Part shown: piece by piece, positions 2-31,799 of the stretch
How the letters are laid out: each line of letters starts with the position of its first letter
Numbering within the stretch: the stretch's first letter is position 1
Assembly: GCA_023818895.1 (NCBI GenBank)
Contig: JAMWCX010000001.1
Location: 329,789 to 361,788, forward strand
Direction of reading: 5' to 3'
DNA from: Candidatus Omnitrophota bacterium
GTDB taxonomy: Bacteria > Omnitrophota > Gorgyraeia > 2-01-FULL-45-10
Length of the DNA stretch: 32,000 nt
The notes under the pieces: generated by a model
What the model was told of the DNA's origin: nothing
Databases searched by the model: none
What the model saw: the letters and a program-made list of their open reading frames with translations, nothing else
Made by a program: the position numbers and the translations under genes

Positions 2-3000
2 ACCGGGTATCGACGTGCCCCGCCATGCAGCCATGGCAAATCCCAGATCATCCAGGATCATCGTATCCGGGTCTGACCAGGCCGGATCGCGCGGATTTTG
101 TCTCATGGCGTCATCAACGACTATAACTCTTTTTATCAATCGGCCTTTATCCGCCAGAAGAACCTGTTTCGCCTGCGGATTTTCTTTTCGTAACTTTTTA
201 AGGAGAAAACTCCTGTAGCTCAAGAGCCGCTTATAGAATCCTGTCTCAGGCTCCGGCATATTACGGTTTGCGTATAACTGATACATATCTTCAATGTACT
301 GGCGCACAAAATGTTCCGGGTCGATACGGTCGGCCGACTGGTATCTGTTATGCGCCTTTACCCGATGGAAGTCCGACAGGGCGTCATAGGTAAGCACCCT
401 TTCATAATTATCGGCAAGAAAAGCCGCCAACCTCCCATTATCACTTATTATGCGTTCTATCGTATTCAGGTATTCTACTACTATACTGTCAACTATGGTC
501 GGCTCATAAAATTCATGATTCCGCTCGGCATAATAACCGTGTTTATTCTTTAAGACCTTTATAACTGGAACATCATCGCGAAGCTTTTCTAAAAGCTCTA
601 TTCGATCGATATCGTACCCTTCAAAAGTACGCGAACCTGCCTCCCAATCAGCTGAGGCATACGTAGTATCTTCTTCGTCCTTTTCCTCGCCGAAAGACGC
701 GAACCCATATCGGCTTTCCGCCCTCCCGCTTTCATTCGCCAGCATAACCACAAAATTAATCGCGAAATGAAACGCCGCCATTATCGCAAGGTATACTTGC
801 TGATCCATCATCGCAATCGGCAGAAGAGCCAATGAGGATACGGTAAGCAAAACCGGAGCGCGCATCCATTTTGATTCCTTGTCATAATGCAAAGCGATAA
901 ATACCAACCCCCAAATAAGGTATGACAATGTTATGCTGCCAAATAGGCCGGCCGTGAAATTAGGCAAAAGCCATCTGAAAATTGGTTCTTCAACAAGCGG
1001 CGCAATGAAAAGAGCCCTGATACGTTTACGCAAACCATGACTCATATTCGGTGTCAACAATTTAAGAAGTCTTGTTACCCCTGGACTGAAGGGCTTCGAA
1101 AATACGCTGTTTTTAGTCAGCAGACTCTTTAGCCAATCTAACCCCGCAACTATCTGCCCCCTTTCCAACATGTTTGTCAGAACGGCGGCATTATTTACAA
1201 TATGAAGCACATATCTGGCGGTATTCGACCGGTCGCCGTACACAGCCGAAAAAGAATTTATCCGTTCTCGATTGCTCAAGGCATTTCTTATGTCATTGTT
1301 GACTTTTACCGGTCCCTTTAAATATGCGGCAAGAGCAAATTTCAGTCGCTCAGAACGATCAGTTATCTTAGAGCTATAATTTTCAAATAACTTCAGCAGG
1401 TATGCACTGCCTGCCCCTACATTCTTCTCCGGCACAAAACGCTCGTCGAATTCCGCGACCCACTTCTTGTAATCCGCCGGATCATATCTAGAGCTATCAA
1501 GACCGTATTTCTTAACAAAATTCCTAGCGGCAAGCCGAAGGGCTTTCTCACCGTCACGGCCCGGCTTCCATTCGCGCTTTCCCTCCTTTATATTGTTGTA
1601 CCTGACTACCCTGACGGCGTGTTCCAGCTGGGCCTGCCAGCGCCTGTCTACGCTAAGCCCCATCTCTACAGCAGCAGGCCCGAGAAGCTGCATGAGTCCA
1701 ACTGCGCCGACTGAAGATACAGCGAAGGGATTGCCATTCGATTCGCGCCGTATGTGGGCAAGCACAAGAGCTATATCCGATATTTCAGGAGCGAAAGTCT
1801 TTTCATATCTTTCTTTTTGGGGTTCGACCTGTTCTCTTTCGGTCTTTTCAGGCAGGATTTCTGCCGGCCGATTTTGATCCGTAGCATTCTCTTTCTGCTC
1901 TATACCTACAGGTTCTATTTCATCATCAGGCGGGTTTATTATCCTCAGCGACATCTTCGGCAAAGTAAATGACATCATTACCAACCCTATTAGCGCCATA
2001 ATGTTAAGAATTTTATTGCAAATCTCTCCTTTAATCCCCATGGGAGGGAGCGCGCTTATCGCTTCGTATTTATCCATATCCCCCCGCTCCACTCCTCTCT
2101 GCACCTGTCTGCGATAATCATCGGAGAATAATAATTTTAATAGGATAACTCCGTCTAAACCTATCGGCAGTATCGCAAATGCGAGGTTCATGTATGCGTA
2201 AATACCCAAGAAAAAACCTACAGGGCTGTCAATATGCAGAAGCAATCTCGCCACAACTTCTGATATTATAAATAAGGCAAAATGCACCGGATAAGGTGCC
2301 GCTATTATCTTTGCGAGTTTTCTTGACACATCAGGAGTGCCCTTCAAAAATCCGAATTGAACACTCACAAGCGTCTGAGGATCATACCCGAGCTCTACGC
2401 CATCGGCACCGTTACTAATGGCCACGATCGCATGGGCTGTCTCATGCACCATAAAGGTAAGCAACAGGACGAGCGCCATCAGTCCCAAAAAAGGCAATAA
2501 GTCCACCTCCAGATCGCTTAAATAAACGAAAAATACCGGCAGGGCCGCGACTATGTTTAAGCGCGCGCGAAAATGTTTTGCGGATTTTCCCGGTGGGCCT
2601 GAGCGGGAAACTTTTTTTGTGACCACGAAGGGAAGTCCCTGCGATGCTTCAAAGGAGTCTCCAAGATATTTTACAACTTTGCTTCTCATTTCGCTGTCTA
2701 ATATCCCTATACCCGGTAATATGCAGCGGCCTCCTGGCTTAAGAACTCGCCTTATCTCTCTAAAGGTCCTTGACAGCTGTGTGTCAGTAAAATATTCGAA
2801 GACTCCCAACTCATAGACAACATCGAAGTAATCATCGGGATAAGGCAAGTGCTCGGTTATGTCCCCTTTTACCAGTTTTACGTCCTTGGCCTCCGTATTC
2901 TCCAAGGCAATATCTATGCCGAATGCTTCCACCTTTTTGCCGTAGACGGCCTTTAACCCTTCGATCGTGTTTCCGCGTTCACCGCAGCCGAGATCAAGGA

Positions 3001-6000
3001 CCCTAACCGTGCCAGAGACGCTGTTGATAGCATCGTTTATGGCACTCTTTATCGAAGAGGGCAGCTCGTCATATGCCCTGTTTGACATTCCTGGCTCCGA
3101 CGAATGAAAGAGCCTTGCAACAAACTCCTTTTCCGCCGCTGACACCACAAAGCGCTGCAGAAGATCCTTCATTTCTTTTGGTGTAATATTATTAGATATT
3201 ATGGAGGTTATAAGCCACCAGGACTTTGTCTTGATCAATTTGTCCCTCAGGCTGTCCGGCACGACAGGACCCTTATCCCCCACGCTCTTCGATCTGAGAT
3301 ATTCAAATATCTTGATATGCTCGTCAAATGGGATCGGGTCTTTATCAGAATCGCGCCATACCTTCAGATAAAAGCCGAGATTCCATATCTCGAGCTCCTC
3401 CACCGTCATTCCTACCTTTCGGAGTATCCTGTCTATCTCCTCAGCATCTGGAACTCCGGTCTTCTCATGGTCATACGCTTCAGGCACATCATACACCAAT
3501 CCAGACTCTTGCGCCCTGCGAAGCGCGCCAGCCTGCTGTAAATCTGATATTTTGTTAGTCGAGGCGACATTTACAACAAAATCGAATGCGAACAATCCGA
3601 AGATGGCATAAAGAACCGCTTTTACCGATGATGATACAGCCGGATAGCTTAACAGCAGATTTGACACCCCTGGCATACCGGAAGCGATGAACAGCAATAT
3701 AGAAAAGGCCGCTATTCCCATTCCGAGCGGCGCTGCCAAAAGAACACGAAGCGGATTTTTGAAGTTTTCGCCTTCAGGTGCGCGATACGCGCCGCCTACG
3801 ATCCTGCCGCCCTCACGGATGATCTCGATCCTGCCCCTGAAGCCGTCCGCCAGCGCGTGTAAGAACTCGTGGGGATAAACCACTAGCATCGACAAGAAGT
3901 TGCCGATAAAGGGAATGCGTGATAAGTGGCGGGCGGTAAAGCTGTAAGCCTTTCCATGCATTGGAGGCTGCATATTATCCAGAAGATATCCGCTGAGCCA
4001 TTTTACGTCATCGATTCTGACAGGGTTTATGTTTTGGATGAATGGATCCCTGCTCAGGCCCAAGGCCGGCGCGTGATTCCCCCCGATTAACACGAGAAAT
4101 TTCTTAGCAGGGTATTTTCGCGTCAGCGCTTCAAGACGTTTCGCCGCAACCTCGTTACGCGCCTTAAGCATCTCCTCCCTGACAAGAACGGCCTTCTGGT
4201 GGAACCTCTTCAGTTCTTCCCTTGAGGCCGATATCCTGATCGCAGCTTTTAAGAGGATCTGCCGTACCTCATCCTCCGGAATACCATAAAGTATTTTCGC
4301 GGTCTGCACAAAAGGATTGAACATTAGCGGAAACGGCGGATCTCGGTCTGTCTTTGCGCCCCTGGCCAATAAGCCCTTAACGACGAGGCTCAGGTGGTCG
4401 TGCAATTGTGGAAAAAGGGATGCGGCCAAGATATCTTCCTTGGAAAGGCCTGTTCTTCTTATCAGTATCTCGAGAACCTCGACATCGCCCTGAAGAGGGA
4501 TTATATCTTCAACCGGTATATTGAGATCCCTGCTCAACTTATCGGCTATCGCCACATCTGCTAGCGAGATCGGCATGCCCGTCTTTCTTCGGTCGGGCAA
4601 AGACTCCGCAACAATTACCCAATCCTGCGGATTCCGAATTATTGACCTGCTTATAGCAAGGATCTCGTCGGCTGCCCTCGGCGAACCGTGCGTGCCCGCA
4701 ACAACCTCCATGGGGGTTCCATACAATGTTATGGAATAACGCTCCGCGCCCCCGCTGGTTATAGTCGACGGCATAGGGCCGAATCTAAGTTCAACCTGGC
4801 TTTTGTGTTCGGCAAGAGATTTGTAAGTTCTTTCAACGCGTATATACGGAACGACAAGGAACGCGGTTATTGCCGCCACCGCAAGAAGCACAGCCGATAT
4901 GATTATAGCCCTGAACGGCGCATGTCTTTCTTTCGCAGCCTGTTTTCCCTGCACAGGAGGCGCGCGCGGCCCTGCCGGCTGAATAACAAAACGCGCTTCA
5001 ATCTCGCCAAGGTACCGCTCGGGGAGGCCCAGTTCTTTTCGTATATCATCAAGAGTCAGACGGTCGCCCTTATTGGCAACAACAACGCGGACCTTCTTGG
5101 CGGCTGCCCGTCTCGCCTCTCTTTTTTCAAGCTTAGGTAGCCCTTCAAGCGCTCTGGCTATGTCCGGAATGGTGGTATCCCTATTAAGCGCCAGACGACC
5201 TGCCGACGACCGTCCCATTCCCTGACCTAGATGAAGCGCCATCGCAAGCCTTACACCGTCCTCCTCGCTTAAACCATACCTTTTAACGAGCGCATCCAGG
5301 TCAATATCTTCCAGAGGAGTTCCCGTGGCAAGCTGCCGACGAGCCTCACGGATTGCGGCGTCAAGACCTGTCGAAGATACCTTAGCATTTGACCTTCCTC
5401 TTGCCTTAACGACCTCGATCGGATCCAGGCCGCCCCTAAAGGATTCGTCGTTAACAAGCGCCTCTACCAGGCCGGCCATCCCTGGAATCTCCAGATCAGC
5501 CGCCTTCACATATTCATCTCTCTTCATGGTATTAAGTTTTTCTCTAAACCACTCTGTCATTCCTCGCTCGCGTATCAGAGGAATGTATTCGGGCATCCTA
5601 AGTTCGTTACGCAGCCTTTCCCATTGCGCTTTGTTTACACGGCGCGCAAGCTCTTTTACACGGTCCTCGTGAGCCTTAAGCTCATCCTCCATCTGCGGTA
5701 TATACTCATCCGACCCTTTTCTCGCATCGTTATGCCTCATCGCTAAATAAATTATCCGCTTCTCGATGACGGATAGTCTCCTCTTTGTATTTAAGAGGTG
5801 GTCGGCTATGGCCAATCTTACATCCTCGTCGCTTGCGTCCGGCCACACTTCTATCCACGAGCCATCCTCCGAAAAAATCACCCTGCATAAGCCGGGAATG
5901 TTCATAGGGGTTTCAATATAGCGGACAATCTTAGAATACTCCGCGTCAACCAGCTGTTGCAACCTCGTCAGGTCCATTAGCGCCGGCTTGTCCGACACCT

Positions 6001-9000
6001 GCTCAGCCGGAATAGATACAGCCTTTTTGCCGGAAATCAAGCGACGGGCCATATTGATTATCTTTGCCCAGAAGATGGATATCAAGATAAGAGGAAAAAC
6101 GTATTTCAGGGCAAACAAACGCAGGCCTTTGGGAGATAAAAAATATGGCTTTAAATCTTCGACGCGCTGCGCCTTTACATGCTCAAGCCTAAAGTCAGCT
6201 AAATTGGAAGAGCATCTTACCGCGCCCTCGTATGAGGCTATATTTTTCGCATTTACCGTCCTCACCTCATAGCCCAGACCTTCCCATATCTTACAGGCTC
6301 GGGCGTCCATTAAGTCGTAACTGTATACAGGCACCAAAGCGACCCGATCCCGCAGGATAACAGCATTGTTATAGGTAATAACCGCCCCTTTGCCAGCCAC
6401 AGTCAGGCCGTACCATGGAAGCGCTGTGACCTTCATTCCTATATCGGTAAGCTCTCTTACCGTCTCGTCCAGTTTCCCAAGAACGCTTGTAAGGCCGCTT
6501 AAATCAAAGCTATAGGCATCAAATCTATCGCAGAAATCTACCAGCGCCTTCTTGAGATCTTTATCGCTAATCTCGGTTTCAACTAAGTATCTTATGTTCG
6601 TCAGCGCAACTTCTATATTGGTAATATGGTTTTTAATGCTTTGTTGCTGTGCCACCGAAATAGAAAATGGCTCTCCTTGTCTTAATATCTCTACCGTTAT
6701 ATCTTTTTCTGTCATAAATTTATCGACATAATCCCGCAACTCATCATATGCAGAAATGTCCAATCTTGCCAAATCAACAGCGGCCTGTTCCAGAAAAGCC
6801 TCCAATCCCATCTTCGGCGAACCTACAAGCGCCACACCTTCCTCCAGAAGCGTGACTTGGGTATCTATATGCGATTTCTCTATGTATGACGGTAAAAGAT
6901 GCAGCTCAGCCTCAAAGAAATCAGTGGCGAAGCGTTTTATGGTCTCCAGAACATCCTCTTTCGTATCAGCTGTTGCCAGCTCCAGGTTTAACCATACGGT
7001 ATGCTCGCCTATGAACAGGTGTTTTTTACCGCCTATCTCAGATACCAACAGGTCGCCTCCGACTAAATCGAATGGCAATTCCACCAGCTTCGCCCCTATG
7101 GCAGCCGCCACTTCCGAAGCAACGGTATAACCGTCGCTTCGGCCATCTTTACCCAACGACTTCATGTGCTTTGAGACGAGCACAAGGCCGGCATCATCCG
7201 GCCCTTTAGCGTAAATAAAAGGATCTCTAATCCATATGGGTACGGCGGTGTATGTCAAATCAGGATACGAAGCGAATATGCTCTTGTGTATAGATATCGC
7301 CTTCACCTTAATGGGCTTCTCCTTCTTGACCTTTTTTATAAGATTCTTGAGATCATCCGAAAAAGACGAATCAAGGACCACGAGGACCTCTGTGTCATCA
7401 GGAAGAGATCTGAATAGCTCCATATAATAATCATCGTAAAGGCTGTCATATCCGATTATGATACCGTTTCCTTCCTGTTTATAGGAAGGCGGCAGGTTTA
7501 TACGCTGATAATTAACCGTATCATTTGGTAATGAAGACTCGCTAATGACGGCATCCGATTTTAATGCCACGTTGGTAATAACAGGCTGTGCTAGCGGCGC
7601 GGCGCTGAGAATGGGTGCTGTTCTGAGCAATGCCCCGATAATAGCCATGCTTATCAAATAGCCGGCGCCTCGCCTACCTCTCCGATTCTTGCTGTCCACG
7701 GGTAACTCTCCATGCCGCTGCGCTTTACTGGTAGACATATCAGATCCAGCCATGCCTGCCATCAAATTAGGGGGCGCGCTTATAGCTGCGGCCGCGAGGC
7801 CTAGACGATTTAAATTACTGGCTATAGCTAGCGCGGATAGGCCGCTCGACTGCGCCAGCTTTATGAATTCGGCGTAAGGATTGCCTGAGAGCAGTTTGAA
7901 ATATGGGCTCTCATATCCGGCGCCGTTTCTGAAATTCGGCAGGATGGATATGTAAGAGATATTGTTTTTCTTGAAGAGCTCGCAGAGGTTCTCGGTGTGA
8001 AAGCCTCCGGTGACCACAACAGCAACTTGAGGCCTGACGGCCTGACGATGCGAGGGCCCTTTACTAAATCTGATATTCTTTATGAAAGCTTCGTCGCGCT
8101 TCATGGAATATTCATAAAACTTAGCCATCTCTTCTCGATTACGGTCAAGACCCTCTATCTCGATACTGAGCCTTGCTTCTATGCCATGTTTCGGCGCTTC
8201 CCGTCTTATGAAGTCTATGTAATTTTTGGCGTTGAATGACTCCTCGTTTGCCTGGTAATACGCGTAGTCCGGGCGAGTCAATGTGGCGTTGAAAAGGTTC
8301 TTCATGAGGGCAAGATTCTTGGAAAGAAGGACAAGATCGCGCTGCGTATCATTTTCGCACAGCGACTCTTTCAGCCGCGACTCGAGATCTTCTATCTCCG
8401 CCATCGCTTTAAGATTGTCGACCGCCTCATAGCGCGATATATAGTTGATATAAGCGTAAAACTGCGAGAAATCCTTCGTCTGTATAGAGAGTGCCGCTGC
8501 CTTGGTCATCAGATATGAGTAAAAATCTTTCTGGGATATCCTATTGGCCCGTAAGGCAACTGTCTTGGCTACCAGCTCCTCTACTTCGCTTCGCGAAAGC
8601 GCATTCTGAAGAACATCGATCAACTGATCGCGCTCAATATTAGCCTTTTTGAAATCAATACCGGCCTCCTGCTCAAGCGACTGCTTCAAAAGACCCAGAT
8701 TTTTAAACGCCGCGATATCGACCGATCTTCTCTCTGCGAGCGTAATGAGATGCGAAATATAGTCTCTAAACGGAAGGCTGCCTGACTTGAATTGCGAATA
8801 GGCAACATCCAGATCGAGAAGCTCCTTAGAATATATCTTGAGTTTTAGGGCAGCGAGAACGCTGCTTAATGCCCTGAGGCCCGCGTTCACGCTCTCTTTT
8901 TCACGTAAAGAATTTTTGTAAACCTTAAGGTTATCGAGATAAAGCCGCGGCTCTTCTATCCCCCACAGCGTGATTCTGCCTGGATTATTAATGGCAAAAT

Positions 9001-9490
9001 ACTCAGCTCCGTTTAAAAGACCCTCTTTTACAAAATTATCCGCGGCCTTATGCCTTATCTCCGCATCTTGAATATTTGTGAACAATGAAATATCATAATC
9101 CGCCTCGCCCCCCTCAAGGTTAACTATGCTGGCGCCGTAAGCGGCGCTTAAATAGTCAATAATCTCAGCGATTTTTATCTGTGCGTTATAGTTACAATGA
9201 GCATCCTGAATGTGAATAATAGTCGGGGGCTGTGAGGCAAGAGCCGGTAGATGAGGCGCTGACCATGAACTTTTTATCGTCCCGAGATCGTGCGGTAGGT
9301 AAAATGATTTTATGTCAAATTCTTCCGACTCGGACAGCGGTGAAATAAAATCAGATTTTTCTGCCCATACAAGATCTGCGGGAAGGCATGTGCAGAGAAA
9401 TGCGATAAGGGTAATAAATGCTATTATCCTTATTGACAGCGTGAACCGGAATATTATATCCCTGCGGATATTTGAGCTCGCGTCTTTCAT
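2..9490 (-). CDS. Giant multidomain membrane protein. N-terminus complete, C-terminus beyond the window edge (at least 3163 codons in window). Absent from the supplied ORF track.
   Basis: ATG at 9488-9490 (minus) is preceded by an in-frame TAA 18 nt upstream. Manual translation of the reverse complement, in the frame whose codons have lowest coordinate = 2 mod 3, met no stop down to position 2. Every recognisable motif listed below lies in that same frame. Any in-frame stop would have produced a complete minus-strand ORF in the track, and none is listed. Confidence 0.9.
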   Translation of the reverse strand, partial: MKDASSNIRRDIIFRFTLSIRIIAFITLIAFLCTCLPADLVWAEKSDFISPLSESEEFDIKSFYLPHDLGTIKSSWSAPHLPALASQPPTIIHIQDAHCNYNAQIKIAEIIDYLSAAYGASIVNLEGGEADYDISLFTNIQDAEIRHKAADNFVKEGLLNGAEYFAINNPGRITLWGIEEPRLYLDNLKVYKNSLREKESVNAGLRALSSVLAALKLKIYSKELLDLDVAYSQFKSGSLPFRDYISHLITLAERRSVDIAAFKNLGLLKQSLEQEAGIDFKKANIERDQLIDVLQNALSRSEVEELVAKTVALRANRISQKDFYSYLMTKAAALSIQTKDFSQFYAYINYISRYEAVDNLKAMAEIEDLESRLKESLCENDTQRDLVLLSKNLALMKNLFNATLTRPDYAYYQANEESFNAKNYIDFIRREAPKHGIEARLSIEIEGLDRNREEMAKFYEYSMKRDEAFIKNIRFSKGPSHRQAVRPQVAVVVTGGFHTENLCELFKKNNISYISILPNFRNGAGYESPYFKLLSGNPYAEFIKLAQSSGLSALAIASNLNRLGLAAAAISAPPNLMAGMAGSDMSTSKAQRHGELPVDSKNRRGRRGAGYLISMAIIGALLRTAPILSAAPLAQPVITNVALKSDAVISESSLPNDTVNYQRINLPPSYKQEGNGIIIGYDSLYDDYYMELFRSLPDDTEVLVVLDSSFSDDLKNLIKKVKKEKPIKVKAISIHKSIFASYPDLTYTAVPIWIRDPFIYAKGPDDAGLVLVSKHMKSLGKDGRSDGYTVASEVAAAIGAKLVELPFDLVGGDLLVSEIGGKKHLFIGEHTVWLNLELATADTKEDVLETIKRFATDFFEAELHLLPSYIEKSHIDTQVTLLEEGVALVGSPKMGLEAFLEQAAVDLARLDISAYDELRDYVDKFMTEKDITVEILRQGEPFSISVAQQQSIKNHITNIEVALTNIRYLVETEISDKDLKKALVDFCDRFDAYSFDLSGLTSVLGKLDETVRELTDIGMKVTALPWYGLTVAGKGAVITYNNAVILRDRVALVPVYSYDLMDARACKIWEGLGYEVRTVNAKNIASYEGAVRCSSNLADFRLEHVKAQRVEDLKPYFLSPKGLRLFALKYVFPLILISIFWAKIINMARRLISGKKAVSIPAEQVSDKPALMDLTRLQQLVDAEYSKIVRYIETPMNIPGLCRVIFSEDGSWIEVWPDASDEDVRLAIADHLLNTKRRLSVIEKRIIYLAMRHNDARKGSDEYIPQMEDELKAHEDRVKELARRVNKAQWERLRNELRMPEYIPLIRERGMTEWFREKLNTMKRDEYVKAADLEIPGMAGLVEALVNDESFRGGLDPIEVVKARGRSNAKVSSTGLDAAIREARRQLATGTPLEDIDLDALVKRYGLSEEDGVRLAMALHLGQGMGRSSAGRLALNRDTTIPDIARALEGLPKLEKREARRAAAKKVRVVVANKGDRLTLDDIRKELGLPERYLGEIEARFVIQPAGPRAPPVQGKQAAKERHAPFRAIIISAVLLAVAAITAFLVVPYIRVERTYKSLAEHKSQVELRFGPMPSTITSGGAERYSITLYGTPMEVVAGTHGSPRAADEILAISRSIIRNPQDWVIVAESLPDRRKTGMPISLADVAIADKLSRDLNIPVEDIIPLQGDVEVLEILIRRTGLSKEDILAASLFPQLHDHLSLVVKGLLARGAKTDRDPPFPLMFNPFVQTAKILYGIPEDEVRQILLKAAIRISASREELKRFHQKAVLVREEMLKARNEVAAKRLEALTRKYPAKKFLVLIGGNHAPALGLSRDPFIQNINPVRIDDVKWLSGYLLDNMQPPMHGKAYSFTARHLSRIPFIGNFLSMLVVYPHEFLHALADGFRGRIEIIREGGRIVGGAYRAPEGENFKNPLRVLLAAPLGMGIAAFSILLFIASGMPGVSNLLLSYPAVSSSVKAVLYAIFGLFAFDFVVNVASTNKISDLQQAGALRRAQESGLVYDVPEAYDHEKTGVPDAEEIDRILRKVGMTVEELEIWNLGFYLKVWRDSDKDPIPFDEHIKIFEYLRSKSVGDKGPVVPDSLRDKLIKTKSWWLITSIISNNITPKEMKDLLQRFVVSAAEKEFVARLFHSSEPGMSNRAYDELPSSIKSAINDAINSVSGTVRVLDLGCGERGNTIEGLKAVYGKKVEAFGIDIALENTEAKDVKLVKGDITEHLPYPDDYFDVVYELGVFEYFTDTQLSRTFREIRRVLKPGGRCILPGIGILDSEMRSKVVKYLGDSFEASQGLPFVVTKKVSRSGPPGKSAKHFRARLNIVAALPVFFVYLSDLEVDLLPFLGLMALVLLLTFMVHETAHAIVAISNGADGVELGYDPQTLVSVQFGFLKGTPDVSRKLAKIIAAPYPVHFALFIISEVVARLLLHIDSPVGFFLGIYAYMNLAFAILPIGLDGVILLKLLFSDDYRRQVQRGVERGDMDKYEAISALPPMGIKGEICNKILNIMALIGLVMMSFTLPKMSLRIINPPDDEIEPVGIEQKENATDQNRPAEILPEKTEREQVEPQKERYEKTFAPEISDIALVLAHIRRESNGNPFAVSSVGAVGLMQLLGPAAVEMGLSVDRRWQAQLEHAVRVVRYNNIKEGKREWKPGRDGEKALRLAARNFVKKYGLDSSRYDPADYKKWVAEFDERFVPEKNVGAGSAYLLKLFENYSSKITDRSERLKFALAAYLKGPVKVNNDIRNALSNRERINSFSAVYGDRSNTARYVLHIVNNAAVLTNMLERGQIVAGLDWLKSLLTKNSVFSKPFSPGVTRLLKLLTPNMSHGLRKRIRALFIAPLVEEPIFRWLLPNFTAGLFGSITLSYLIWGLVFIALHYDKESKWMRAPVLLTVSSLALLPIAMMDQQVYLAIMAAFHFAINFVVMLANESGRAESRYGFASFGEEKDEEDTTYASADWEAGSRTFEGYDIDRIELLEKLRDDVPVIKVLKNKHGYYAERNHEFYEPTIVDSIVVEYLNTIERIISDNGRLAAFLADNYERVLTYDALSDFHRVKAHNRYQSADRIDPEHFVRQYIEDMYQLYANRNMPEPETGFYKRLLSYRSFLLKKLRKENPQAKQVLLADKGRLIKRVIVVDDAMRQNPRDPAWSDPDTMILDDLGFAMAAWRGTSIPG
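740..1010 (-). other. Giant protein aa ~2828-2915: CPBP/Abi (CAAX protease-like) intramembrane glutamic endopeptidase domain
   Basis: Motif 1 APLVEEPIFRWLL (EEPIFR 974-991), motif 2 FIALH (FxxxH), and motif 3 AAFHFAINF (HFAIN 755-769). All are embedded in hydrophobic segments. Confidence 0.75.
1185..1800 (-). other. Giant protein aa ~2565-2770: SLT (family 1) lytic transglycosylase domain
   Basis: IALVLAHIRRESNGNPFAVSSVGAVGLMQLL, with the catalytic-type Glu codon at 1742-1744 and GLMQ ending at 1688. Downstream is KFALAAYLKGPVKV (1301-1330), which matches the AYNxGxxxV motif. Confidence 0.85.
2090..2530 (-). other. Giant protein aa ~2320-2465: M50 (site-2 protease)-like intramembrane metalloprotease module
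   Basis: HExxH inside a hydrophobic helix: LMALVLLLTFMVHETAHAIVA (HETAH 2432-2446). A second family motif follows downstream: YMNLAFAILPIGLDGVILL (LPIGLDG 2150-2170). Compare NxxPxxxLDG in SpoIVFB/RseP-type enzymes. Confidence 0.7.
2690..3080 (-). other. Giant protein aa ~2140-2265: class I SAM-dependent methyltransferase domain (Methyltransf_11-like)
   Basis: Motif I VRVLDLGCGERG (2972-3001), post-I AFGIDIA, motif II YFDVVYELGVFEYF, and motif III REIRRVLKPGGRCIL (LKPGG 2729-2743). Confidence 0.85.
3560..3900 (-). other. Giant protein aa ~1865-1975: HExxH membrane module (M50B-like putative metalloprotease)
   Basis: VVYPHEFLHALADGFRGRIEIIREGG, with HEFLH at 3857-3871. It is followed by hydrophobic spans LRVLLAAPLGMGIAAFSILLFIASG and VKAVLYAIFGLFAFDFVVNV. 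The HExxHAL-x4-G-x-I pattern resembles Peptidase_M50B. Confidence 0.5.
4050..4770 (-). other. Giant protein aa ~1575-1810: Tiki/TraB/GumN-like module 2
   Basis: EVVAGTHGSPRAADEI (4679-4705), DWVIVAESLPD, and KKFLVLIGGNHAPALG (4058-4090). Compare TraB LVGTAHFS ... VMVELC ... VVGMGHVPGI. Confidence 0.5.
6200..7471 (-). other. Giant protein aa ~674-1096: guanidino-group-modifying (pentein) domain, agmatine deiminase / Porphyromonas-type peptidyl-arginine deiminase-like
   Basis: Colinear series matching the agmatine deiminase / PAD_porph motif order: PIWIRDPF (W-I-R-D 7223-7234), DLVGGDLLVSEIGGKKHLFIGE (V-G-G-D 7052-7063), SHIDTQVTLLEEG (H-I-D 6863-6871), ITYNNAVILRDRVALVPVY, and ASYEGAVRCSSN (Cys codon 6212-6214, at the position of the catalytic Cys in GGGxHCxTQ / GxRCMS). 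A helical insertion of about 130 aa follows the HID motif. Confidence 0.6.
7976..9238 (-). other. Giant protein aa ~85-505: Tiki/TraB/GumN/ChaN-superfamily-like module 1 with a long helical insertion
   Basis: TIIHIQDAHCNYNAQ (9191-9220), IVNLEGGE, and VAVVVTGGFHTENL (7985-8017). These resemble the paired GxxH and acidic-strand motifs of TraB/GumN proteins (hhGTxH ... VELD ... VGxGHhxG). Motif-level only. Confidence 0.4.
9362..9490 (-). other. Giant protein aa 1-43: N-terminal signal peptide or signal anchor
   Basis: Basic N-region (MKDASSNIRRD), then hydrophobic IIFRFTLSIRIIAFITLIAFLCTCL, then PADLVWA/EK, which resembles an AxA-type cleavage site. Confidence 0.6.
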
Positions 9491-9552: not shown

Positions 9553-9580
9553 ATTATATCATAATTAATTACTTAGTCAA
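9553..9580 (-). promoter_or_regulatory. Near-consensus sigma70-type promoter upstream of the giant gene
   Basis: Minus strand reads TTGACT (9575-9580), a 16-nt spacer, then TATAAT (9553-9558) with TG extension (TGATATAAT 9553-9561). It sits in a very AT-rich tract about 60 nt upstream of ATG 9490. Confidence 0.5.
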
Positions 9581-9862: not shown

Positions 9863-9948
9863 TGGTGGTGAGGGAAGGATTCGAACCTTCGAAGGCTTTC
9901 GCCGCCAGATTTACAGTCTGGTCCATTTGGCCACTCTGGTACCTCACC
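9863..9948 (-). tRNA. tRNA-Tyr (anticodon GTA), type II with long variable arm, CCA encoded
   Basis: Reverse complement is GGTGAGGTACCAGAGTGGCCAAATGGACCAGACTGTAAATCTGGCGGCGAAAGCCTTCGAAGGTTCGAATCCTTCCCTCACCACCA. Acceptor stem GGTGAGG/CCTCACC, anticodon loop CTGTAAA, T-loop GGTTCGAATCC. Very close to E. coli tRNA-Tyr. Confidence 0.95.
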
Positions 9949-10112: not shown

Positions 10113-10172
10113 AAATCGGCTTCGATTCCCTTGCTTGGGAAAATCGCTAACTGGAGCTAGCGGAGGGAATCG
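10113..10172. repeat. Copy 2 of the exact 60-bp direct repeat. Overlaps the genuine 3' end of tRNA-Thr (10152-10172).
   Basis: Identical 60-mer to 9975-10034. Within each copy, cgattccct and agggaatcg are inverted and could pair. Confidence 0.9.
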
Positions 10173-10227
10173 AACCCCCGACCTGAGGTTTACAAAACCC
10201 CTGCTCTGCCTGCTGAGCTACGCTAGC
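10152..10227 (-). tRNA. tRNA-Thr (anticodon TGT), CCA encoded
   Basis: Reverse complement is GCTAGCGTAGCTCAGCAGGCAGAGCAGGGGTTTTGTAAACCTCAGGTCGGGGGTTCGATTCCCTCCGCTAGCTCCA. Clean cloverleaf with anticodon loop TTTGTAA. Confidence 0.95.
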
Positions 10228-19212: not shown

Positions 19213-19289
19213 TGGTAGCGGGGACTGGATTTGAACCAGTGACACGCCGGGTATGAGCCGACTGCTCTGCCAGACTGAGCTACCCCGCC
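19213..19289 (-). tRNA. tRNA-Met (anticodon CAT), elongator-like. A lysidine-modified tRNA-Ile2 cannot be excluded.
   Basis: Reverse complement is GGCGGGGTAGCTCAGTCTGGCAGAGCAGTCGGCTCATACCCGGCGTGTCACTGGTTCAAATCCAGTCCCCGCTACCA. G1-U72 pair, no initiator GGG/CCC anticodon stem, CCA encoded. Confidence 0.9.
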
Positions 19290-19366: not shown

Positions 19367-20191
19367 CTAATTATTATTGAAGCGGTATCTTCTTCCTATC
19401 GCCTCATGCATGCTGCCAGTCCGATAGCCCGCAAGATCGAGAGTAACATAGACAAAACCGAGCTTCTTAATGGTTGCCGTTATAGAACGGCTCATTCGCA
19501 GCGCCTTTCCCATTTCCTCTTGCAAAAGCTCAATTCGCGCTATATCCTTATGGATCCTTACCCTTACCTGATTAAATCCCAGCCGCCTTAAATAATCCTC
19601 AGCCTTGGCAACCCTCTTGAGGTCTCTTGCTGTTATAAAACTACCGAATGGAAAACGTGAGGCAAGGCAGGCAAAAGAATGCTTGTCCCATGTAGTAAGC
19701 TTAAGCTCCTTGGACAGTTTCCTTATCTGATCCTTCGCTATGCCGGCATCCAATAATGGGCTCTTTACACCAAGCTCTTGGGCGGCGAGCCTTCCGTATC
19801 GGACGTCCTTAAGATCGTCGTAATTGGTGCCGTCAAGGACAGCGCCCATCTTGAAACGCTCTCTTATCTTTTCTAGTTTTGTGAATAATTCCTTCTTGCA
19901 GTAGTAGCACCTGTTAACAGGGTTCGATCTGAAATTTTTCAGCGACAGCTCTCTAGTCCGTATCGCGATGTGTCTGGCGCCTATCTTGCCGGCAAGGCGT
20001 CGGGCCTGGTTATATTCCGAAACGGGATACGTCTCAGACCTCGCCGTGACGGCAAGCACATTGTCCTTGCCCAGCACATCTGCGGCTACTTTAAGCAAAA
20101 ATGTGCTATCGAGCCCGCCAGAATAGGCGACAACGACACTGCCCATCGATTTGATGCTGTCTTTTAGCTTTTTTAATTTATTCGTGAGCAT
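19367..20191 (-). CDS. LarE-like ATP-dependent sulfur transferase / PP-loop ATP pyrophosphatase (TIGR00268-type)
   Basis: PP-loop VVAYSGGLDSTFL, CYYC motif, and FACLASRFPFG. 274 aa. Confidence 0.7.
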   Translation of the reverse strand: MLTNKLKKLKDSIKSMGSVVVAYSGGLDSTFLLKVAADVLGKDNVLAVTARSETYPVSEYNQARRLAGKIGARHIAIRTRELSLKNFRSNPVNRCYYCKKELFTKLEKIRERFKMGAVLDGTNYDDLKDVRYGRLAAQELGVKSPLLDAGIAKDQIRKLSKELKLTTWDKHSFACLASRFPFGSFITARDLKRVAKAEDYLRRLGFNQVRVRIHKDIARIELLQEEMGKALRMSRSITATIKKLGFVYVTLDLAGYRTGSMHEAIGRRYRFNNN

Positions 20192-21334: not shown

Positions 21335-22355
21335 GGAAAGATCCCCTCACATTACCAGCCATTTCCACCTTCATCTTGTCGCCGTCTTTAACCACAATGG
21401 CGGCCATCGCCTTTTCCGAATCAACTATCTTCAGCCCTTCCCTCCCGAGGACACATAACGCAGTCGCAAGCATATCGGCTCTTACGGTGTCTTCAGACAC
21501 TACCGTCGCGCTGATGATATAATCGCCAACAGGATAACCTGTCCTTGGGTCTATTATATGTGAATAACGGCGCCCTTCGAGCGTGAAATATTTTTCGTAA
21601 TCCCCTGAGGTAACCACTGCCTCGTCCATGACATCGAGTTCCATAAATACTTCCGAACTTTTTCTGGGATGGCGAATGCCGACCCGCCAAGGGCGAAATT
21701 TTGAGCGTGCACCCAGGCAATAGATATCTCCTCCCGAATTAACTATAGCATCTCTTATACCTATTTCCTGAAGGACTTTTATGGCCCTGTCGGTGGCGTA
21801 ACCTTTGGCAACGCCTCCCAGATCAATTGCCACCCCATCTTTCGCAAACGATATCGTCATTTTAGTTTTATCAAGTATAATATTTGCGGCACCTACCTTT
21901 TCTAAGGCCTTTTTTATCTCCGACACCGCCGGCAATCGGCCACTCATTCTGGCATCTTGCCACAAACGGACAAGAGGATAAACTGTTATATCAAAAGCGC
22001 CGGATGTCTTTTTGGTATATTCTACAGATCGTTCTATGAGACTAAACGTTTCGGTGGTTATTTTCATTTCTTCGCCGAGCTTCAGGCCGTTTATTCTGGA
22101 TATCTCGCTATCTTGCCTGTAAACGCTGAAAACCTTCTCAACGCGATCTATTTCGTCAAATGCCCTATCTATAGCATAATCGGCGGCCTTCTTGTCCAAT
22201 CCTGGTCTCAGAGGCACCTTTATTTGAACTATCGTCCCCATCGCAAGGCGCGATTCTTCGACCATGTTTTCACGTTGGCGTAAGGCATAAATCAAACATG
22301 CTGCGGCGATTACGGTGGCCAAAATAAGAAAGAGCGGACTTTTTGCGGATTTCAT
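21306..22355 (-). CDS. apbE: FAD:protein FMN transferase (ApbE family), probably membrane or lipid anchored
   Basis: N-terminal hydrophobic LFLILATVIAAAC, then MGTIVQIKV, GGVAKGYA, and SGDYEKYF, which are typical of ApbE. Confidence 0.85.
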   Translation of the reverse strand: MKSAKSPLFLILATVIAAACLIYALRQRENMVEESRLAMGTIVQIKVPLRPGLDKKAADYAIDRAFDEIDRVEKVFSVYRQDSEISRINGLKLGEEMKITTETFSLIERSVEYTKKTSGAFDITVYPLVRLWQDARMSGRLPAVSEIKKALEKVGAANIILDKTKMTISFAKDGVAIDLGGVAKGYATDRAIKVLQEIGIRDAIVNSGGDIYCLGARSKFRPWRVGIRHPRKSSEVFMELDVMDEAVVTSGDYEKYFTLEGRRYSHIIDPRTGYPVGDYIISATVVSEDTVRADMLATALCVLGREGLKIVDSEKAMAAIVVKDGDKMKVEMAGNVRGSFRVYQKKLSQ

Positions 22356-23446
22356 TTTAAGCCGGACAGGACTTTGTCGATATCGATACGCGCCTGCACC
22401 ATGTCAACGATTATCTTTATCTTCTCTTTATCCTGAGGCTTGAGTTTCACAACCATTGAGTTTATACGTGAGGCTACCGCATACGTATCGTCTTTCGTAA
22501 TAAGGGCTGCTATGCGCGATCTTTCTATCGAGCGAAGGCTTCCGCGCTTTGGCATAAGCCCGCCGGATAATATTATCCCTGAAACCTTGTAGTTCTTTTT
22601 CGTCCTGCCAGTATGCACCCTGCAAACAGCTTCGATAATGTCGTCCCTATCTCCAGGCACGATGATCAGAGAGTTATTGCGTATATATTCGATAGCGTCC
22701 TTAAAATTCATCGCGCCTATGAGAACATTCTCGACAGGCCTGTCGAGGCTTTCGCCTGAATAAAGGGTTTCAATCTTTATCTCTTCCTTTATCTCGCGCA
22801 TGGTCGGTATATCCAGTATTTTCTGGTAAGGAAGAACGCCGAAAACGTTCAGACCTTTTTGTTCAAGCCCTTTCCTTACAAGCCGTGCTATCTTTTCATA
22901 TTTTTCGGGAAGGACCTTATTGACAACCACACCGGCCAGTTTAACGCCTTCCTTGTCAAACAGCGCTTTGTTAAGCATTATCTCGTCGATTGGCTTACCC
23001 ACTCCTCCTGAAGATATTAGAAGAACGTTTGAATCGAGAAGATTCGCCACCGCCGCATTTGACAACCCAAAAACACTTCCTACACCTGCGTGCCCCGTAC
23101 CCTCTATTATAACCAGATCATTCTCTTTCGCTATACGCTCATAAGCTTCTGTTATCTGTTTGGTGTAATCCTCTTCCGCCCCTCTCTCTATGAAACGCTC
23201 GGTAAACCCTCTCTCTATGGCAACGGGCGACATGTCTTTTATGTTGCACTTAATGCCGAAAACTTCTTCGATAAGCACGGAATCCTCATCAACCTGGTAG
23301 CCCTGCTCGACTAAATAACGCTGGCCTATCGGCTTGATGAACCCGATTCGCTCAAAACGTTTCTTGAGAGCGGCAATCAGGCCAAGCGATACGGTCGTCT
23401 TGCCATCGTTCTGCATCGTAGCGGCTATGAAGATCTTTTTCGCCAT
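22352..23446 (-). CDS. P-loop (BioD/CobQ-like) plus DRTGG domain protein, resembling the N-terminal part of phosphotransacetylase without the catalytic PTA domain
   Basis: KIFIAATMQNDGKTTVSLGL P-loop-like N-terminus and IIVPGDRDDIIEAV (DRTGG motif). 364 aa. Confidence 0.6.
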   Translation of the reverse strand: MAKKIFIAATMQNDGKTTVSLGLIAALKKRFERIGFIKPIGQRYLVEQGYQVDEDSVLIEEVFGIKCNIKDMSPVAIERGFTERFIERGAEEDYTKQITEAYERIAKENDLVIIEGTGHAGVGSVFGLSNAAVANLLDSNVLLISSGGVGKPIDEIMLNKALFDKEGVKLAGVVVNKVLPEKYEKIARLVRKGLEQKGLNVFGVLPYQKILDIPTMREIKEEIKIETLYSGESLDRPVENVLIGAMNFKDAIEYIRNNSLIIVPGDRDDIIEAVCRVHTGRTKKNYKVSGIILSGGLMPKRGSLRSIERSRIAALITKDDTYAVASRINSMVVKLKPQDKEKIKIIVDMVQARIDIDKVLSGLK

Positions 23447-23468
23447 AGAAACTAGATATAAGATTCGG

Positions 23469-24269
23469 CTATATCAGCCTCTTGTCCCTAAACGCCTTTA
23501 TGTAGCCAGCGCAATACTGGTCCTCATTGAGCAAGACAGCCGATGCAGCCATCGCGGAAGAGATATGTCTATCGGTAGGATCAAGGATCGCCGCATCAAG
23601 GCCTGCGGCGGCCGCCATCGATAGGAAAGCGGCGTTTACAGTGCCTCTATGAGGCAGGCCGAATGATACATTCGAAAGGCCGCATATCGTCTTTACATTG
23701 CCGAGCCCCTTTATCGCGGGAATCGCCCTAAGGAACTCTAACGCCTGGCCAGGTTCAGTTGCCACGGGTCTTATTAGCGCGTCAAAATAAAGGTCCTCGG
23801 TATTGAATCCGCCCTTTTTGACATGCTCAACTATCTTCTTAGCTATCTCAACTCTTTCGGCGGCGCTATTCGGCATCCCTTTTTCATCCATGGTAAGAGC
23901 AATGAGTTTGGTCTTGTATTTTACAGCCATTGGGAGGATTTTAGCAATCCTTGGCTCTTCACCTGTTATCGAATTTATGAAAATTTTTCCTTTGCCCTTA
24001 TAGACCGTCAAGGCCTTTTCGATAGCACGATAATTGGGGCTGTCTATGCAGATATTTATTTCCGGGATCTCGCTCTGCAGAACGCTTATAATCCAATCCA
24101 TATCCTGCAATTCGTCCCCCGTTGTGACGGCACAGTTTATATCGATGTAATCGGCTCCGGCCCTCAGCTGAGCGGAAGCCTCCTTAAGTATATGAGCGGC
24201 ATTCCGTGCCTTGATCGCTTCCTCTATGCGCGGCCTGGTTGAGTTTATCCTCTCTCCTATAATAAGCAT
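23469..24269 (-). CDS. Pterin-binding methyltransferase, second AcsE/MeTr-like paralog
   Basis: MLIIGERINSTR, DYIDIN, LSNVSFGLP, and C-terminal YCAGYIKAF. Colinear with AcsE but more divergent than the 26070-26858 copy. Confidence 0.7.
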   Translation of the reverse strand: MLIIGERINSTRPRIEEAIKARNAAHILKEASAQLRAGADYIDINCAVTTGDELQDMDWIISVLQSEIPEINICIDSPNYRAIEKALTVYKGKGKIFINSITGEEPRIAKILPMAVKYKTKLIALTMDEKGMPNSAAERVEIAKKIVEHVKKGGFNTEDLYFDALIRPVATEPGQALEFLRAIPAIKGLGNVKTICGLSNVSFGLPHRGTVNAAFLSMAAAAGLDAAILDPTDRHISSAMAASAVLLNEDQYCAGYIKAFRDKRLI

Positions 24270-25208
24270 CTACTTCTCCCTTAATTGTTTTTCATAACTG
24301 GACTCGATAGTTTTCACAAGGTTGGTCAGCACCTCGTTTATAGGTGTCGGAATCGCGAGCGCCTTCGCCTGCCGTACTATCGCGCCGTTGATGAAATCTA
24401 TCTCCGTCTTCTTTCTATTGAGGACATCCTGTAACATGCTCGATACATTAGACGCTGTCGCCCTGCAAACCGACTCCACCTTCTGTATAGGATCGTCATA
24501 AGATAGCTTTATACGCTTGCGCTTGACGAGCCTGACCGCTTCCTGTACGGCGCAGCGCATCACCTGACGGCACTCATCATACTCCACCAGGGCGCCGTTA
24601 TTAAGCCGTGTAACGGCGGTCAAGGCATTTATACCCGCGTTTATTATAAGCTTGCTCCATATGACAGATTCTATATCTTTCGATATTTTGGTCTCGAAGC
24701 CGGCTTTTGAAAGAACATTCGCCACCTCACGTATGGCGCCCAGCACCCTGCCATCCGCTCTGCCGATTGTAGTGTCGGCCTTACCCGCATGGCGCACGTG
24801 CCCAATACCGAGCAAGGTTGCTCCATGATTTGTCACCCCCGCCATTACTTTTTCGGCTCCGAACTGGTCGTTCATTATTTGCACGTTGCCTATGCCGTTC
24901 TGAAGCGTCAATACGCTCGTAGAGGTCCCAACTAGTTCCTTAATATCCCTGCAAGCCTCTTCTGTTGAGTAGCTCTTTACGCACAGAATAACAAGATCGC
25001 AAACGCCAATATCCTTGGCGCTAGAGGCGGTGTTTACCCTGGCCGTAAATTGACCGCTCACCCCTTCTACCTTTATGCCGTTTTCGGAAATCTTTTTGGC
25101 CCTCTCCGGCATATTGTCGAAAAGCCAGACATCCTCACGCGTCCTGTTCTTTATGGATGCAGCGAGCAGACATCCCAGCGCTCCAGGCCCTACAACGACT
25201 ATCTTCAT
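24270..25208 (-). CDS. panE: 2-dehydropantoate 2-reductase
   Basis: MKIVVVGPGALGC Rossmann N-terminus and ApbA/PanE-type C-terminal domain (WSKLIINAGINALTA). Confidence 0.8.
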   Translation of the reverse strand: MKIVVVGPGALGCLLAASIKNRTREDVWLFDNMPERAKKISENGIKVEGVSGQFTARVNTASSAKDIGVCDLVILCVKSYSTEEACRDIKELVGTSTSVLTLQNGIGNVQIMNDQFGAEKVMAGVTNHGATLLGIGHVRHAGKADTTIGRADGRVLGAIREVANVLSKAGFETKISKDIESVIWSKLIINAGINALTAVTRLNNGALVEYDECRQVMRCAVQEAVRLVKRKRIKLSYDDPIQKVESVCRATASNVSSMLQDVLNRKKTEIDFINGAIVRQAKALAIPTPINEVLTNLVKTIESSYEKQLREK

Positions 25209-25216
25209 GATATCTC

Positions 25217-26059
25217 CTAATCCTTCATGAGCTTCGAAAACTCTTCTTCATTTATCGCGAAGGTATGCTCCGCAGCTGGAAAAGATCCTGTCTCCACTTC
25301 AGACTTGTACTTCTTGAAGGCCTCCAAGATCAACGGCGCAAGCTTGACATACTGCTTTACAAACTTAGGGACAAACCTGTCAAAAAGGCCCACCATGTCA
25401 TTGGTAACGAGAACCTGTCCGTCGCAGTAAGGGCCTGCGCCGCAGCTTATAGTCGGAATCGAAATCCTCTCCGTGATAAGCTTTGCGACCTTGTCCGGCA
25501 CGCATTCCAGCACTATCGCGAAACACCCCGCCTTCTCAAGAAGACGCGCGTCATCGAGAATCTTGCGCGCCGCTTCTGCCGACTTTCCCTGTATCTTATA
25601 GCCGCCAAGCTTCGATACCGTTTGGGGGGTAAGCCCCAGATGGCCAAGAACCGGAATACCGGCATTGACTATAGCCTTTGTAACGCCAACGACTTCGCTT
25701 CCGCCCTCCAGCTTAACCGCATCACAGCCGGCTTCTTTCATGAAACGGCTGGCGTTGCGTATAGCATCTTCGTTAGAGACTTGGTACGACATGAACGGCA
25801 TATCGCCTATGAGGAGGGCATACTTTGTCCCGCGCCGGACAGCCTTTGCGTGATGTATCATCTCGTCCATAGTGACAGGCACGGTCGACTCGTAGCCCAG
25901 AACAACCATACCGAGAGAATCGCCCACAAGGATCGAGTCTATTTCTGCGTTATCAACAAGCTTCGCCATCGGATAATCATAGGCGGTAAGCATCGTTATC
26001 TTCTTGCCGTCTCGTTTTTTGGCCTGCAAATCCGTTATCGTAATTTTCTTGCGCTCCAT
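25217..26059 (-). CDS. panB: 3-methyl-2-oxobutanoate hydroxymethyltransferase
   Basis: LTAYDYPMAKL, LVGDSLGMVVLGY, and GHLGLTPQ motifs. I prefer ATG 26059, which has GAGGAG 6-11 nt upstream. The track's GTG 26104 would overlap acsE by 35 nt. Confidence 0.9.
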   Translation of the reverse strand: MERKKITITDLQAKKRDGKKITMLTAYDYPMAKLVDNAEIDSILVGDSLGMVVLGYESTVPVTMDEMIHHAKAVRRGTKYALLIGDMPFMSYQVSNEDAIRNASRFMKEAGCDAVKLEGGSEVVGVTKAIVNAGIPVLGHLGLTPQTVSKLGGYKIQGKSAEAARKILDDARLLEKAGCFAIVLECVPDKVAKLITERISIPTISCGAGPYCDGQVLVTNDMVGLFDRFVPKFVKQYVKLAPLILEAFKKYKSEVETGSFPAAEHTFAINEEEFSKLMKD

Positions 26060-26069
26060 CTTTTCTCCT

Positions 26070-27787: not shown

Positions 27788-27788
27788 A

Positions 27789-28523: not shown

Positions 28524-28525
28524 CG

Positions 28526-31759: not shown

Positions 31760-31799
31760 ATAAGCCCCCTTCAATCATAGACAAAACCCTTTCTTAAAG

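Follow-up and report, generated by a model that had tools for sequence, protein, structure and literature searches.

A probable member of a family of giant, membrane-threaded multi-enzyme proteins in Omnitrophota, with protease-like modules among its cassettes

The window analyzed here is a stretch of 32,000 nucleotides from a Candidatus Omnitrophota bacterium (assembly GCA_023818895.1, contig JAMWCX010000001.1, positions 329,789 to 361,788), at one edge of which a giant open reading frame (ORF) was found to be a genuine single gene. Its product joins the giant multi-enzyme membrane proteins recently reported from Omnitrophota as a new member, and is probably one paralogue of an Omnitrophota-specific family of such membrane-threaded chains. 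In this family, a signal anchor and a conserved head of ~500 amino acids (aa) are followed by enzyme cassettes that are separated or carried by hydrophobic helices. The initial annotation had described the gene as a fusion of five protease-like modules (two TraB-like, two of the HExxH-containing M50 type and one CPBP/Abi) and had suggested a machine that processes or modifies secreted peptides or envelope proteins, or else a device for attack and immunity. The giant ORF and the positions of its modules were borne out, whereas the machine was not supported: the modules rarely co-occur and the neighboring genes are housekeeping genes. Judged from sequence comparison, the five protease-like modules form no conserved ensemble, and the joint presence of TraB-, M50- and CPBP-like modules is best explained by an assortment of cassettes and not by a new signaling system. 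The ORF, the conserved N-terminal part and the enzyme-like modules are as follows (K/R, lysine and arginine residues; AF2, AlphaFold2; SAM, S-adenosylmethionine).

2..9490, minus strand: giant ORF (stop-free frame from 9508 to 2, first ATG at 9490), at least 3,163 aa, with the C-terminus beyond the window edge
9371..9451, minus strand: N-terminal signal anchor or signal peptide, aa 14-40 (hydropathy peak 2.38; three K/R before it and one after)
7811..9319, minus strand: family-defining head domain, aa 58-560, the only region common to the 120 listed homologues (alignment, AF2 model)
6116..7543, minus strand: pentein/deiminase-like domain, aa 650-1125 (motifs W-x-R-D, GGDLL, SHxDT, YNN, GAVRCSS)
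4046..4768, minus strand: putative TraB/TIKI/Ere-superfamily module (TraB-like 2), aa 1575-1815 (AGTHGS, VAESLPD, IPVEDIIP, ARNEV, GGNHAP)
3551..3913, minus strand: HExxH membrane module 1, aa 1860-1980 (HEFLHALAD, a beta-hairpin, AAPLG, KISD; three long helices in the AF2 model)
2666..3088, minus strand: class I SAM-dependent methyltransferase, aa 2135-2275 (Methyltransf_11, PF08241, 61.2 bits; Methyltransf_25, PF13649, 56 bits; above cut-off)
1946..2578, minus strand: HExxH membrane module 2, aa 2305-2515 (HETAH, AAPYP, N..LPIGLDG; about five hydrophobic helices)
1211..1798, minus strand: SLT lytic transglycosylase, aa 2565-2760 (PF01464, 57.5 bits in two stretches, cut-off 21.3)
740..1021, minus strand: CPBP/Rce1-like intramembrane protease module, aa 2824-2917 (PF02517, three motifs)

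A homologue search with the giant protein returned 281 proteins at E<=1e-5, and the homologue figures given below rest on the best 120 of these matches, which were picked by the N-terminal domain alone. All 120 are Omnitrophota giants of 1,742-5,352 aa, and only aa ~20-560 is common to the query and all of them, at 42-57% identity. Throughout the listed homologues the head domain is N-terminal and single-copy, and a hydrophobic segment was found ahead of it in 98 of 112 homologues. Scanning of species-representative genomes confirmed 186 head-domain loci; all of the 80 listed loci lie in Omnitrophota bins, and some third-party assemblies among them carry a Planctomycetia label. Several head-domain paralogues occur per genome (several genomes have 2-3 loci each), sometimes sharing one contig. 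Two head genes 8-12 kb apart were observed on JBARQV010000033.1 (L052 and L082, at 8150 and 20047) and on CAZGOG010000026.1 (L046 and L076), which suggests tandem giant paralogues.

Beyond the head, only one relative, P0001, has much in common with the giant protein, its head being 37% identical. In P0001, a block of HExxH module 2 and SLT and a block of soluble region, TraB-like 2 and HExxH module 1 stand in swapped order, and the part of P0001 that is available showed neither a methyltransferase nor a CPBP module. Of the 120 homologues selected by the head, TraB-like 2 was detected in one, HExxH module 1 in two, HExxH module 2 in 4-5 and CPBP in four, and CPBP never occurs together with TraB-like 2 or either HExxH module. 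The same head is found across Omnitrophota giants, and the five-module set is unique to the giant protein among 141 relatives examined. The cassettes of other family members include kinases, HATPase, UbiB with M48, M50, GNAT, TPR/HEAT and PEP-utilising domains.

The earlier statement that this architecture lies outside any described system is out of date, since Omnitrophota giants with mixed enzyme domains and transmembrane (TM) segments have been published. West-Roberts et al. 2023 (10.1101/2023.11.21.568195) described Omnitrophota giants in which diverse enzyme domains accompany many TM helices and whose N-termini 'generally lack identifiable domains'; Burroughs et al. 2025 (PMC12419801) noted gigantic TM-interspersed proteins of this phylum, and Nielsen & Lui 2026 (10.64898/2026.06.07.730766) defined a 'multi-enzyme' class of them. 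The giant protein resembles these in its phylum, in the union of unrelated enzyme domains (methyltransferases, peptidases, SLT) and TM helices in one chain, in its signal peptide or anchor and in a sequence-unique architecture. It differs in that the catalogued giants have at least 10 or at least 30 thousand aa (kaa), whereas family members seen here span 1.7-7.7 kaa and share a conserved N-terminal head; moreover, SecA-DEAD, C39 and dockerin domains are absent from the available part of the protein.

In an alignment of 22 sequences, the head contains the invariant motifs IQDAHCN (aa 94-100), NLEGG (124-128), GAEY, KRD (464-466) and TGGFH (494-498). Its AF2 model (predicted local distance difference test score, pLDDT, 81; predicted template-modeling score, pTM, 0.74) consists of a small alpha/beta core, whose strand ends hold the invariant residues, and a helical insert of ~290 aa. 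This region had been annotated as the first TraB-like module (7976-9238), and the evidence for that proved marginal. The invariant QDAH, NLEGG, KRD and TGGFH follow the H ... E ... RD ... GGFH order of the TraB superfamily; hhalign against a TraB/GumN profile of just 9-10 sequences gave P=0.038-0.051 (P=0.023 for the core only), and Foldseek returned Ere-like 3b55 and 2rad, EreC 6xcs and HopBA1 at prob 0.08-0.35. On the other side, the Pfam scan gave no PF01963 (TraB) match to the head at E<=10, and both the insert and the invariant Cys (QDAHCN) set the head apart from the superfamily. Assignment of the head to the TraB/TIKI/Ere fold is thus marginal, and it is possibly a TIKI/Ere-fold hydrolase. 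Homology between the two 'TraB' modules is not claimed, because hhalign found no significant similarity between the head and TraB-like 2 (P=0.13 over the full length, 0.068 for the core). No description of the head domain was found in the searched papers on Omnitrophota giant proteins, and a text search listed no relevant paper that connects this phylum to TraB, TIKI or erythromycin esterase; the domain appears to be new to the literature on these giants.

For TraB-like 2 (annotated at 4050-4770), an exhaustive search through 1.84 billion representative proteins retrieved only 23 relatives, nearly all of them giants. The family keeps GxH, W..xEG, IPVxD, RN and GxxH, with the motifs conserved in 13 relatives, and the ordered catalytic-type residues (GTH, ES, RN, GGNH) are conserved across relatives. 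Like the TraB/PrgY/GumN/TIKI and EreA/ChaN superfamily, the module has an ordered GxH ... E ... RN ... GxxH series together with an alpha/beta core. The AF2 model built with its relatives reached a pLDDT of 89.7. When this model was compared with PDB by Foldseek, no match was found at E<=0.001; the top three matches were 8bqs_DQ (prob 0.93), EreC 6xcs (0.90, E 0.066) and 6xcq (0.89), all at E 0.05-0.07 and TM-score 0.2-0.3, with Ere-like 2qgm lower in the list. The entry 8BQS includes a 385-aa 'TraB family protein', COXTT5, and judging from its size of 383 residues, chain DQ is probably this protein. A reference profile built from E. coli YbaP only was too narrow (effective number of sequences, Neff, 2.0; P=0.055) and was replaced by one of YbaP and plasmid-borne TraB/GumN family members, the 9-10 sequences mentioned above. 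Against it, hhalign aligned 142-219 columns of TraB-like 2, including GxH, RN and GxxH, with P=9.1e-4. The Pfam scan found no PF01963 match to the module at E<=10; among segments from 24 relatives, one matches this family at E 0.075. Taken together, these alignments and models reasonably support a place for TraB-like 2 in the TraB/TIKI/erythromycin-esterase superfamily, but not Pfam-level membership in TraB. This superfamily spans proteases, esterases and a haem binder, and protease activity is therefore not implied for either module. At least one relative stands alone, a protein of 236 aa (P0140; L090, 2089-2799) whose contig encodes a Ribosomal_60s-family protein as well; this suggests an archaeal source and, with it, that the TraB-like 2 family is not limited to Omnitrophota giants.

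The two HExxH modules, placed earlier at 3560-3900 and 2090-2530 and called M50-type, proved to be real and related to each other. The protein contains exactly two HExxH motifs versus 0.06 expected (P(>=2)=0.0015 by shuffling), and both HEFLH (aa 1874) and HETAH (aa 2349) lie within a hydrophobic helix and are conserved in relatives. By hhalign, module 1 is related to module 2 with P=7.8e-4 over 88 columns. Both fall short at the level of Pfam: module 2 has sub-threshold matches to M50B (16.0 bits, cut-off 26) and M50 (12.6, cut-off 27.2), and module 1 has no Pfam match. Relatives score higher in part. The homologue of module 2 in P0067 matches M50 above the cut-off (31.9 versus 27.2 bits) and just fails to pass for DUF3267 (26.3), the counterparts in P0002 and P0001 reach 19.9 and 19.6 bits for M50, and one relative of module 1 matches M50B at E 0.0013. 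These M50-type matches span the HExxH helix only, and along the M50 model they reach no further than its initial 30-45 positions. Module 2 has an M50-type second motif, N..LPIGLDG, whose DG is kept in four of five relatives; module 1 lacks an NxxPxxxxDG motif and instead has HExxHxxxD and a terminal SD, besides AAPxG. The HExxH within a hydrophobic helix and the N..P..LDG-type motif of module 2 are shared with M50 site-2 proteases (Eep, RseP), M50B-like proteins and DUF3267; unlike M50 proteins, both modules insert a beta-hairpin behind the HExxH helix, and there are no PDZ or CBS domains. A database-wide homologue search with module 2 gave no match at database-scale E-values, and local profile iteration was used instead. 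From these motifs and profiles, both modules would be M50/DUF3267-like membrane zincin modules, short of strict M50 membership.

Of the remaining assignments of the initial annotation, the CPBP/Abi module (740-1010) was confirmed. Scanned as an isolated segment, it scores 29.7 bits for PF02517 (cut-off 22.4); in a scan of the whole 3,163 aa the score is 22.1, just under the cut-off. Its three motifs, EEPIFR (aa 2834-2839), FIALH (2864-2868) and HFAIN (2908-2912), lie inside hydrophobic peaks, in line with the EExxxR, FxxxH and HxxxN of consecutive helices in CPBP/Abi/Rce1 proteins; unlike the stand-alone proteins, the module is embedded in a giant chain with no adjacent bacteriocin locus. Related modules were found in P0047, P0084, P0114 and P0088. 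The fused methyltransferase and muramidase-like SLT were confirmed by the Pfam scores listed above; motif I of the former is VLDLGCG, and the latter has its catalytic E-S within RRESNGNP, followed by GLMQL. As for the deiminase-like domain, its catalytic motifs are conserved, but the PAD_porph (PF04371) match of 20.2 bits is under the cut-off of 25 (E 3.8e-4) and covers the C-terminal third only. W-x-R-D, SHxDT, YNN and G..RC are kept in P0001, its only homologue, whose region weakly matches ADI. In all, three families are above their Pfam cut-offs and four further modules were detected. PDB sequence and profile searches with the head, TraB-like 2 plus HExxH module 1, the deiminase-like region and the TraB/GumN profiles gave nothing significant. 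Near the C-terminus of P0001 (L009), aa 3246-3332 match DUF7790 (PF25046) at 60 bits; this family was also assigned to P0008 and P0098, and the giant protein of the window lacks a match to it as far as its sequence is available.

Hydropathy analysis gave ~16 hydrophobic helices in the available protein. Besides those within the modules, the segments and regions between and after the cassettes are the following.

7592..7663, minus strand: borderline hydrophobic segment, aa 610-633 (hydropathy 1.76; five K/R on the N side, one on the C side)
6041..6118, minus strand: TM helix, aa 1125-1150 (hydropathy 1.84)
4916..6040, minus strand: soluble region, aa 1151-1525, no Pfam match, partly common to P0001 and P0015
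4844..4912, minus strand: TM helix, aa 1527-1549 (hydropathy 2.97)
3101..3538, minus strand: soluble region, aa 1985-2130, with neither a Pfam match nor a homologue in the set of 141 related giants
2..685, minus strand: C-terminal soluble region, from aa 2936 to 3163 and beyond, no Pfam match and no homologue among the same 141 giants

Because of the K/R counts around the signal anchor, the N-terminus is predicted to be inside, and the head therefore outside. With three spans for HExxH module 1 and five for module 2, positively charged loops would come to lie inside, together with the methyltransferase, and TraB-like 2 and SLT would be outside. The chain would thus weave through the cytoplasmic membrane, with the head, TraB-like 2 and SLT in the periplasm and the methyltransferase in the cytoplasm, while the three polytopic hydrolase-like modules would double as membrane crossings. 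Such a topology would suit a peptidoglycan enzyme outside and a SAM-dependent enzyme inside. The cassettes carried here (pentein/deiminase-like, TraB/TIKI-superfamily hydrolase-like, the two HExxH modules, methyltransferase, SLT and CPBP) have intact catalytic-type motifs. They may form a fixed array of envelope-modifying enzymes that cleaves the cell wall and hydrolyzes or processes envelope or secreted proteins, acting otherwise than as a pheromone-type signaling circuit; the protease-like modules would then be interchangeable cassettes and not a co-evolved set.

Several points weigh against this interpretation. The parity of the topology holds only if the segment at aa 610-633 stays on one side of the membrane. 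This may be the case: its five K/R on the N side would run counter to the positive-inside rule if it crossed. A hydrophobic segment no more than 200 aa downstream of the head was found in only 28 of 118 homologues. In addition, four of the five protease-like modules were assigned on sub-threshold or superfamily-level evidence. The published catalogues comprise proteins of at least 10,000 or at least 30,000 aa, and it is a supposition that the smaller head family belongs to the same evolutionary class. Finally, the chain is known for its first 3,163 aa only, and the full architecture extends past the window.

Among the alternatives, the best surviving, which we still regard as unlikely, is a self-processing polyprotein, in which the head, TraB-like 2, the HExxH modules and CPBP would cleave the chain in or close to its TM linkers and free soluble enzymes on either side of the membrane. 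The cassettes are bounded by TM helices and shuffled as units, their catalytic motifs are intact, and proteases of the intramembrane type recur in the family (M50-like, CPBP, M48, signal peptidase II); moreover, C39 and S8 domains have already been proposed by West-Roberts et al. as possible cutters of giant proteins. However, no cleavage sites were identified, and a Pfam-recognized membrane protease is present in only ~10 of the 120 listed homologues. In-chain proteases would hence be no general solution unless the head itself is a protease, and its fold assignment is only marginal. A doubtful extension makes the head just that: a hitherto unrecognized, highly derived, periplasmic, metal-dependent hydrolase of the TIKI/TraB/Ere fold, which would mature the family proteins or act on a common envelope substrate and, in copies like the present one, cut the membrane-threaded polyprotein into separate enzymes together with the embedded intramembrane proteases. 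If true, head-driven cleavage would parallel, in bacteria, the processing of viral polyproteins.

It is quite improbable that the giant protein is a predation or host-attack device, whose SLT and hydrolases would degrade the envelope of prey or host while the CPBP/Abi-like module protects the producer. CPBP/Abi proteins provide bacteriocin immunity in Firmicutes, and an SLT domain is indeed present; in other family members sampled, however, CPBP occurs without SLT. Roles in prey attachment and cell-wall degradation have been proposed for Omnitrophota giants (10.1101/2023.11.21.568195; PMC12419801), but this chain is threaded through the producer's own membrane and carries a SAM methyltransferase that needs a cytoplasmic cofactor. 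Furthermore, Pfam revealed no adhesin, dockerin or toxin-delivery domain in the available 3,163 aa, and PADLOC matched a generic methyltransferase only.

It is very unlikely that the giant protein is a machine devoted to secreted signal peptides, which it would mature, degrade or modify by uniting roles like those of Eep (M50), PrgY/TraB and Abi proteins. All three superfamilies are represented by modules whose motifs are intact, and K/R counts place the TraB-like modules probably in the periplasm, like the extracellular protease domains of PrgY and TIKI (PMC7117660), but the combination of the three is not repeated among the 141 relatives, the same head is joined to unrelated enzyme sets in paralogues, and the chromosomal context is one of housekeeping genes with no syntenic peptide precursor, transporter or regulator.

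A membrane-threaded multi-enzyme family with interchangeable cassettes, the reading we prefer, recalls MARTX toxins and polymorphic toxin systems, which also combine a constant N-terminal part with shuffled enzymatic cassettes downstream; MARTX toxins are self-processing and include a TIKI-fold effector, RRSP (PMC6254334). In contrast to the giant protein, those toxins are secreted, are not threaded through a membrane by TM helices and deliver their cassettes as toxins into target cells, and the giant protein has no RTX repeats, CPD or immunity gene. Omnitrophota giants are a recognized puzzle with regard to their membrane insertion, cleavage and role. What is added here is a large sub-family united by one exported head with invariant His, Cys, Asp and Glu and with shuffled cassettes behind it. 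The conserved head offers a concrete experimental handle: an expressible domain, a topology model and a cleavage hypothesis.

Two features lie directly upstream of the giant gene.

9553..9580, minus strand: sigma-70-like promoter, TTGACT-16-TATAAT with TG, ~60 nt upstream of the ATG (11 of 12 consensus matches; a consensus match only)
9863..9948 and 10152..10227, minus strand: tRNA-Tyr(gta) and tRNA-Thr(tgt), on the same strand as the giant gene

The near-consensus promoter lies in an AT-rich spacer of 370 bp, and a terminator-like hairpin (9994-9971) was observed between tRNA-Tyr and tRNA-Thr. Genes for tRNAs are frequent hot spots for integration or variability; G+C content is uniform over the window. 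The other genes of the window are housekeeping genes (nnrD, pdxJ, cdaA, folP, ftsH, tilS, mnmA, apbE, panB/panE, a carbon monoxide dehydrogenase/acetyl-CoA synthase (CODH/ACS) cluster and tRNAs). None of them, next to the giant gene, is the peptide precursor, transporter or regulator that the Enterococcus-type pheromone context of the initial annotation would imply, and they give no sign of a plasmid or of conjugation. The neighborhood of P0001, the closest relative, also consists of housekeeping genes, and no synteny is shared between the window and its locus. PADLOC applied to the window had a generic methyltransferase (mad2) as its sole match, and a defense-system reading was dropped for this reason.

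Farther along the window, a tRNA-Met(cat) gene (19213-19289) adjoins an ORF of 274 aa (19367-20191) located upstream of mnmA, with only a weak N-terminal match to PP-loop/NAD-synthase. The Wood-Ljungdahl CODH/ACS cluster occupies 22352-31774 and contains three CdhD-family genes, RACo, a CooC-like ATPase and pterin-binding methyltransferases. Inside this cluster sit the pantothenate genes panB (25217-26104) and panE (24270-25208).

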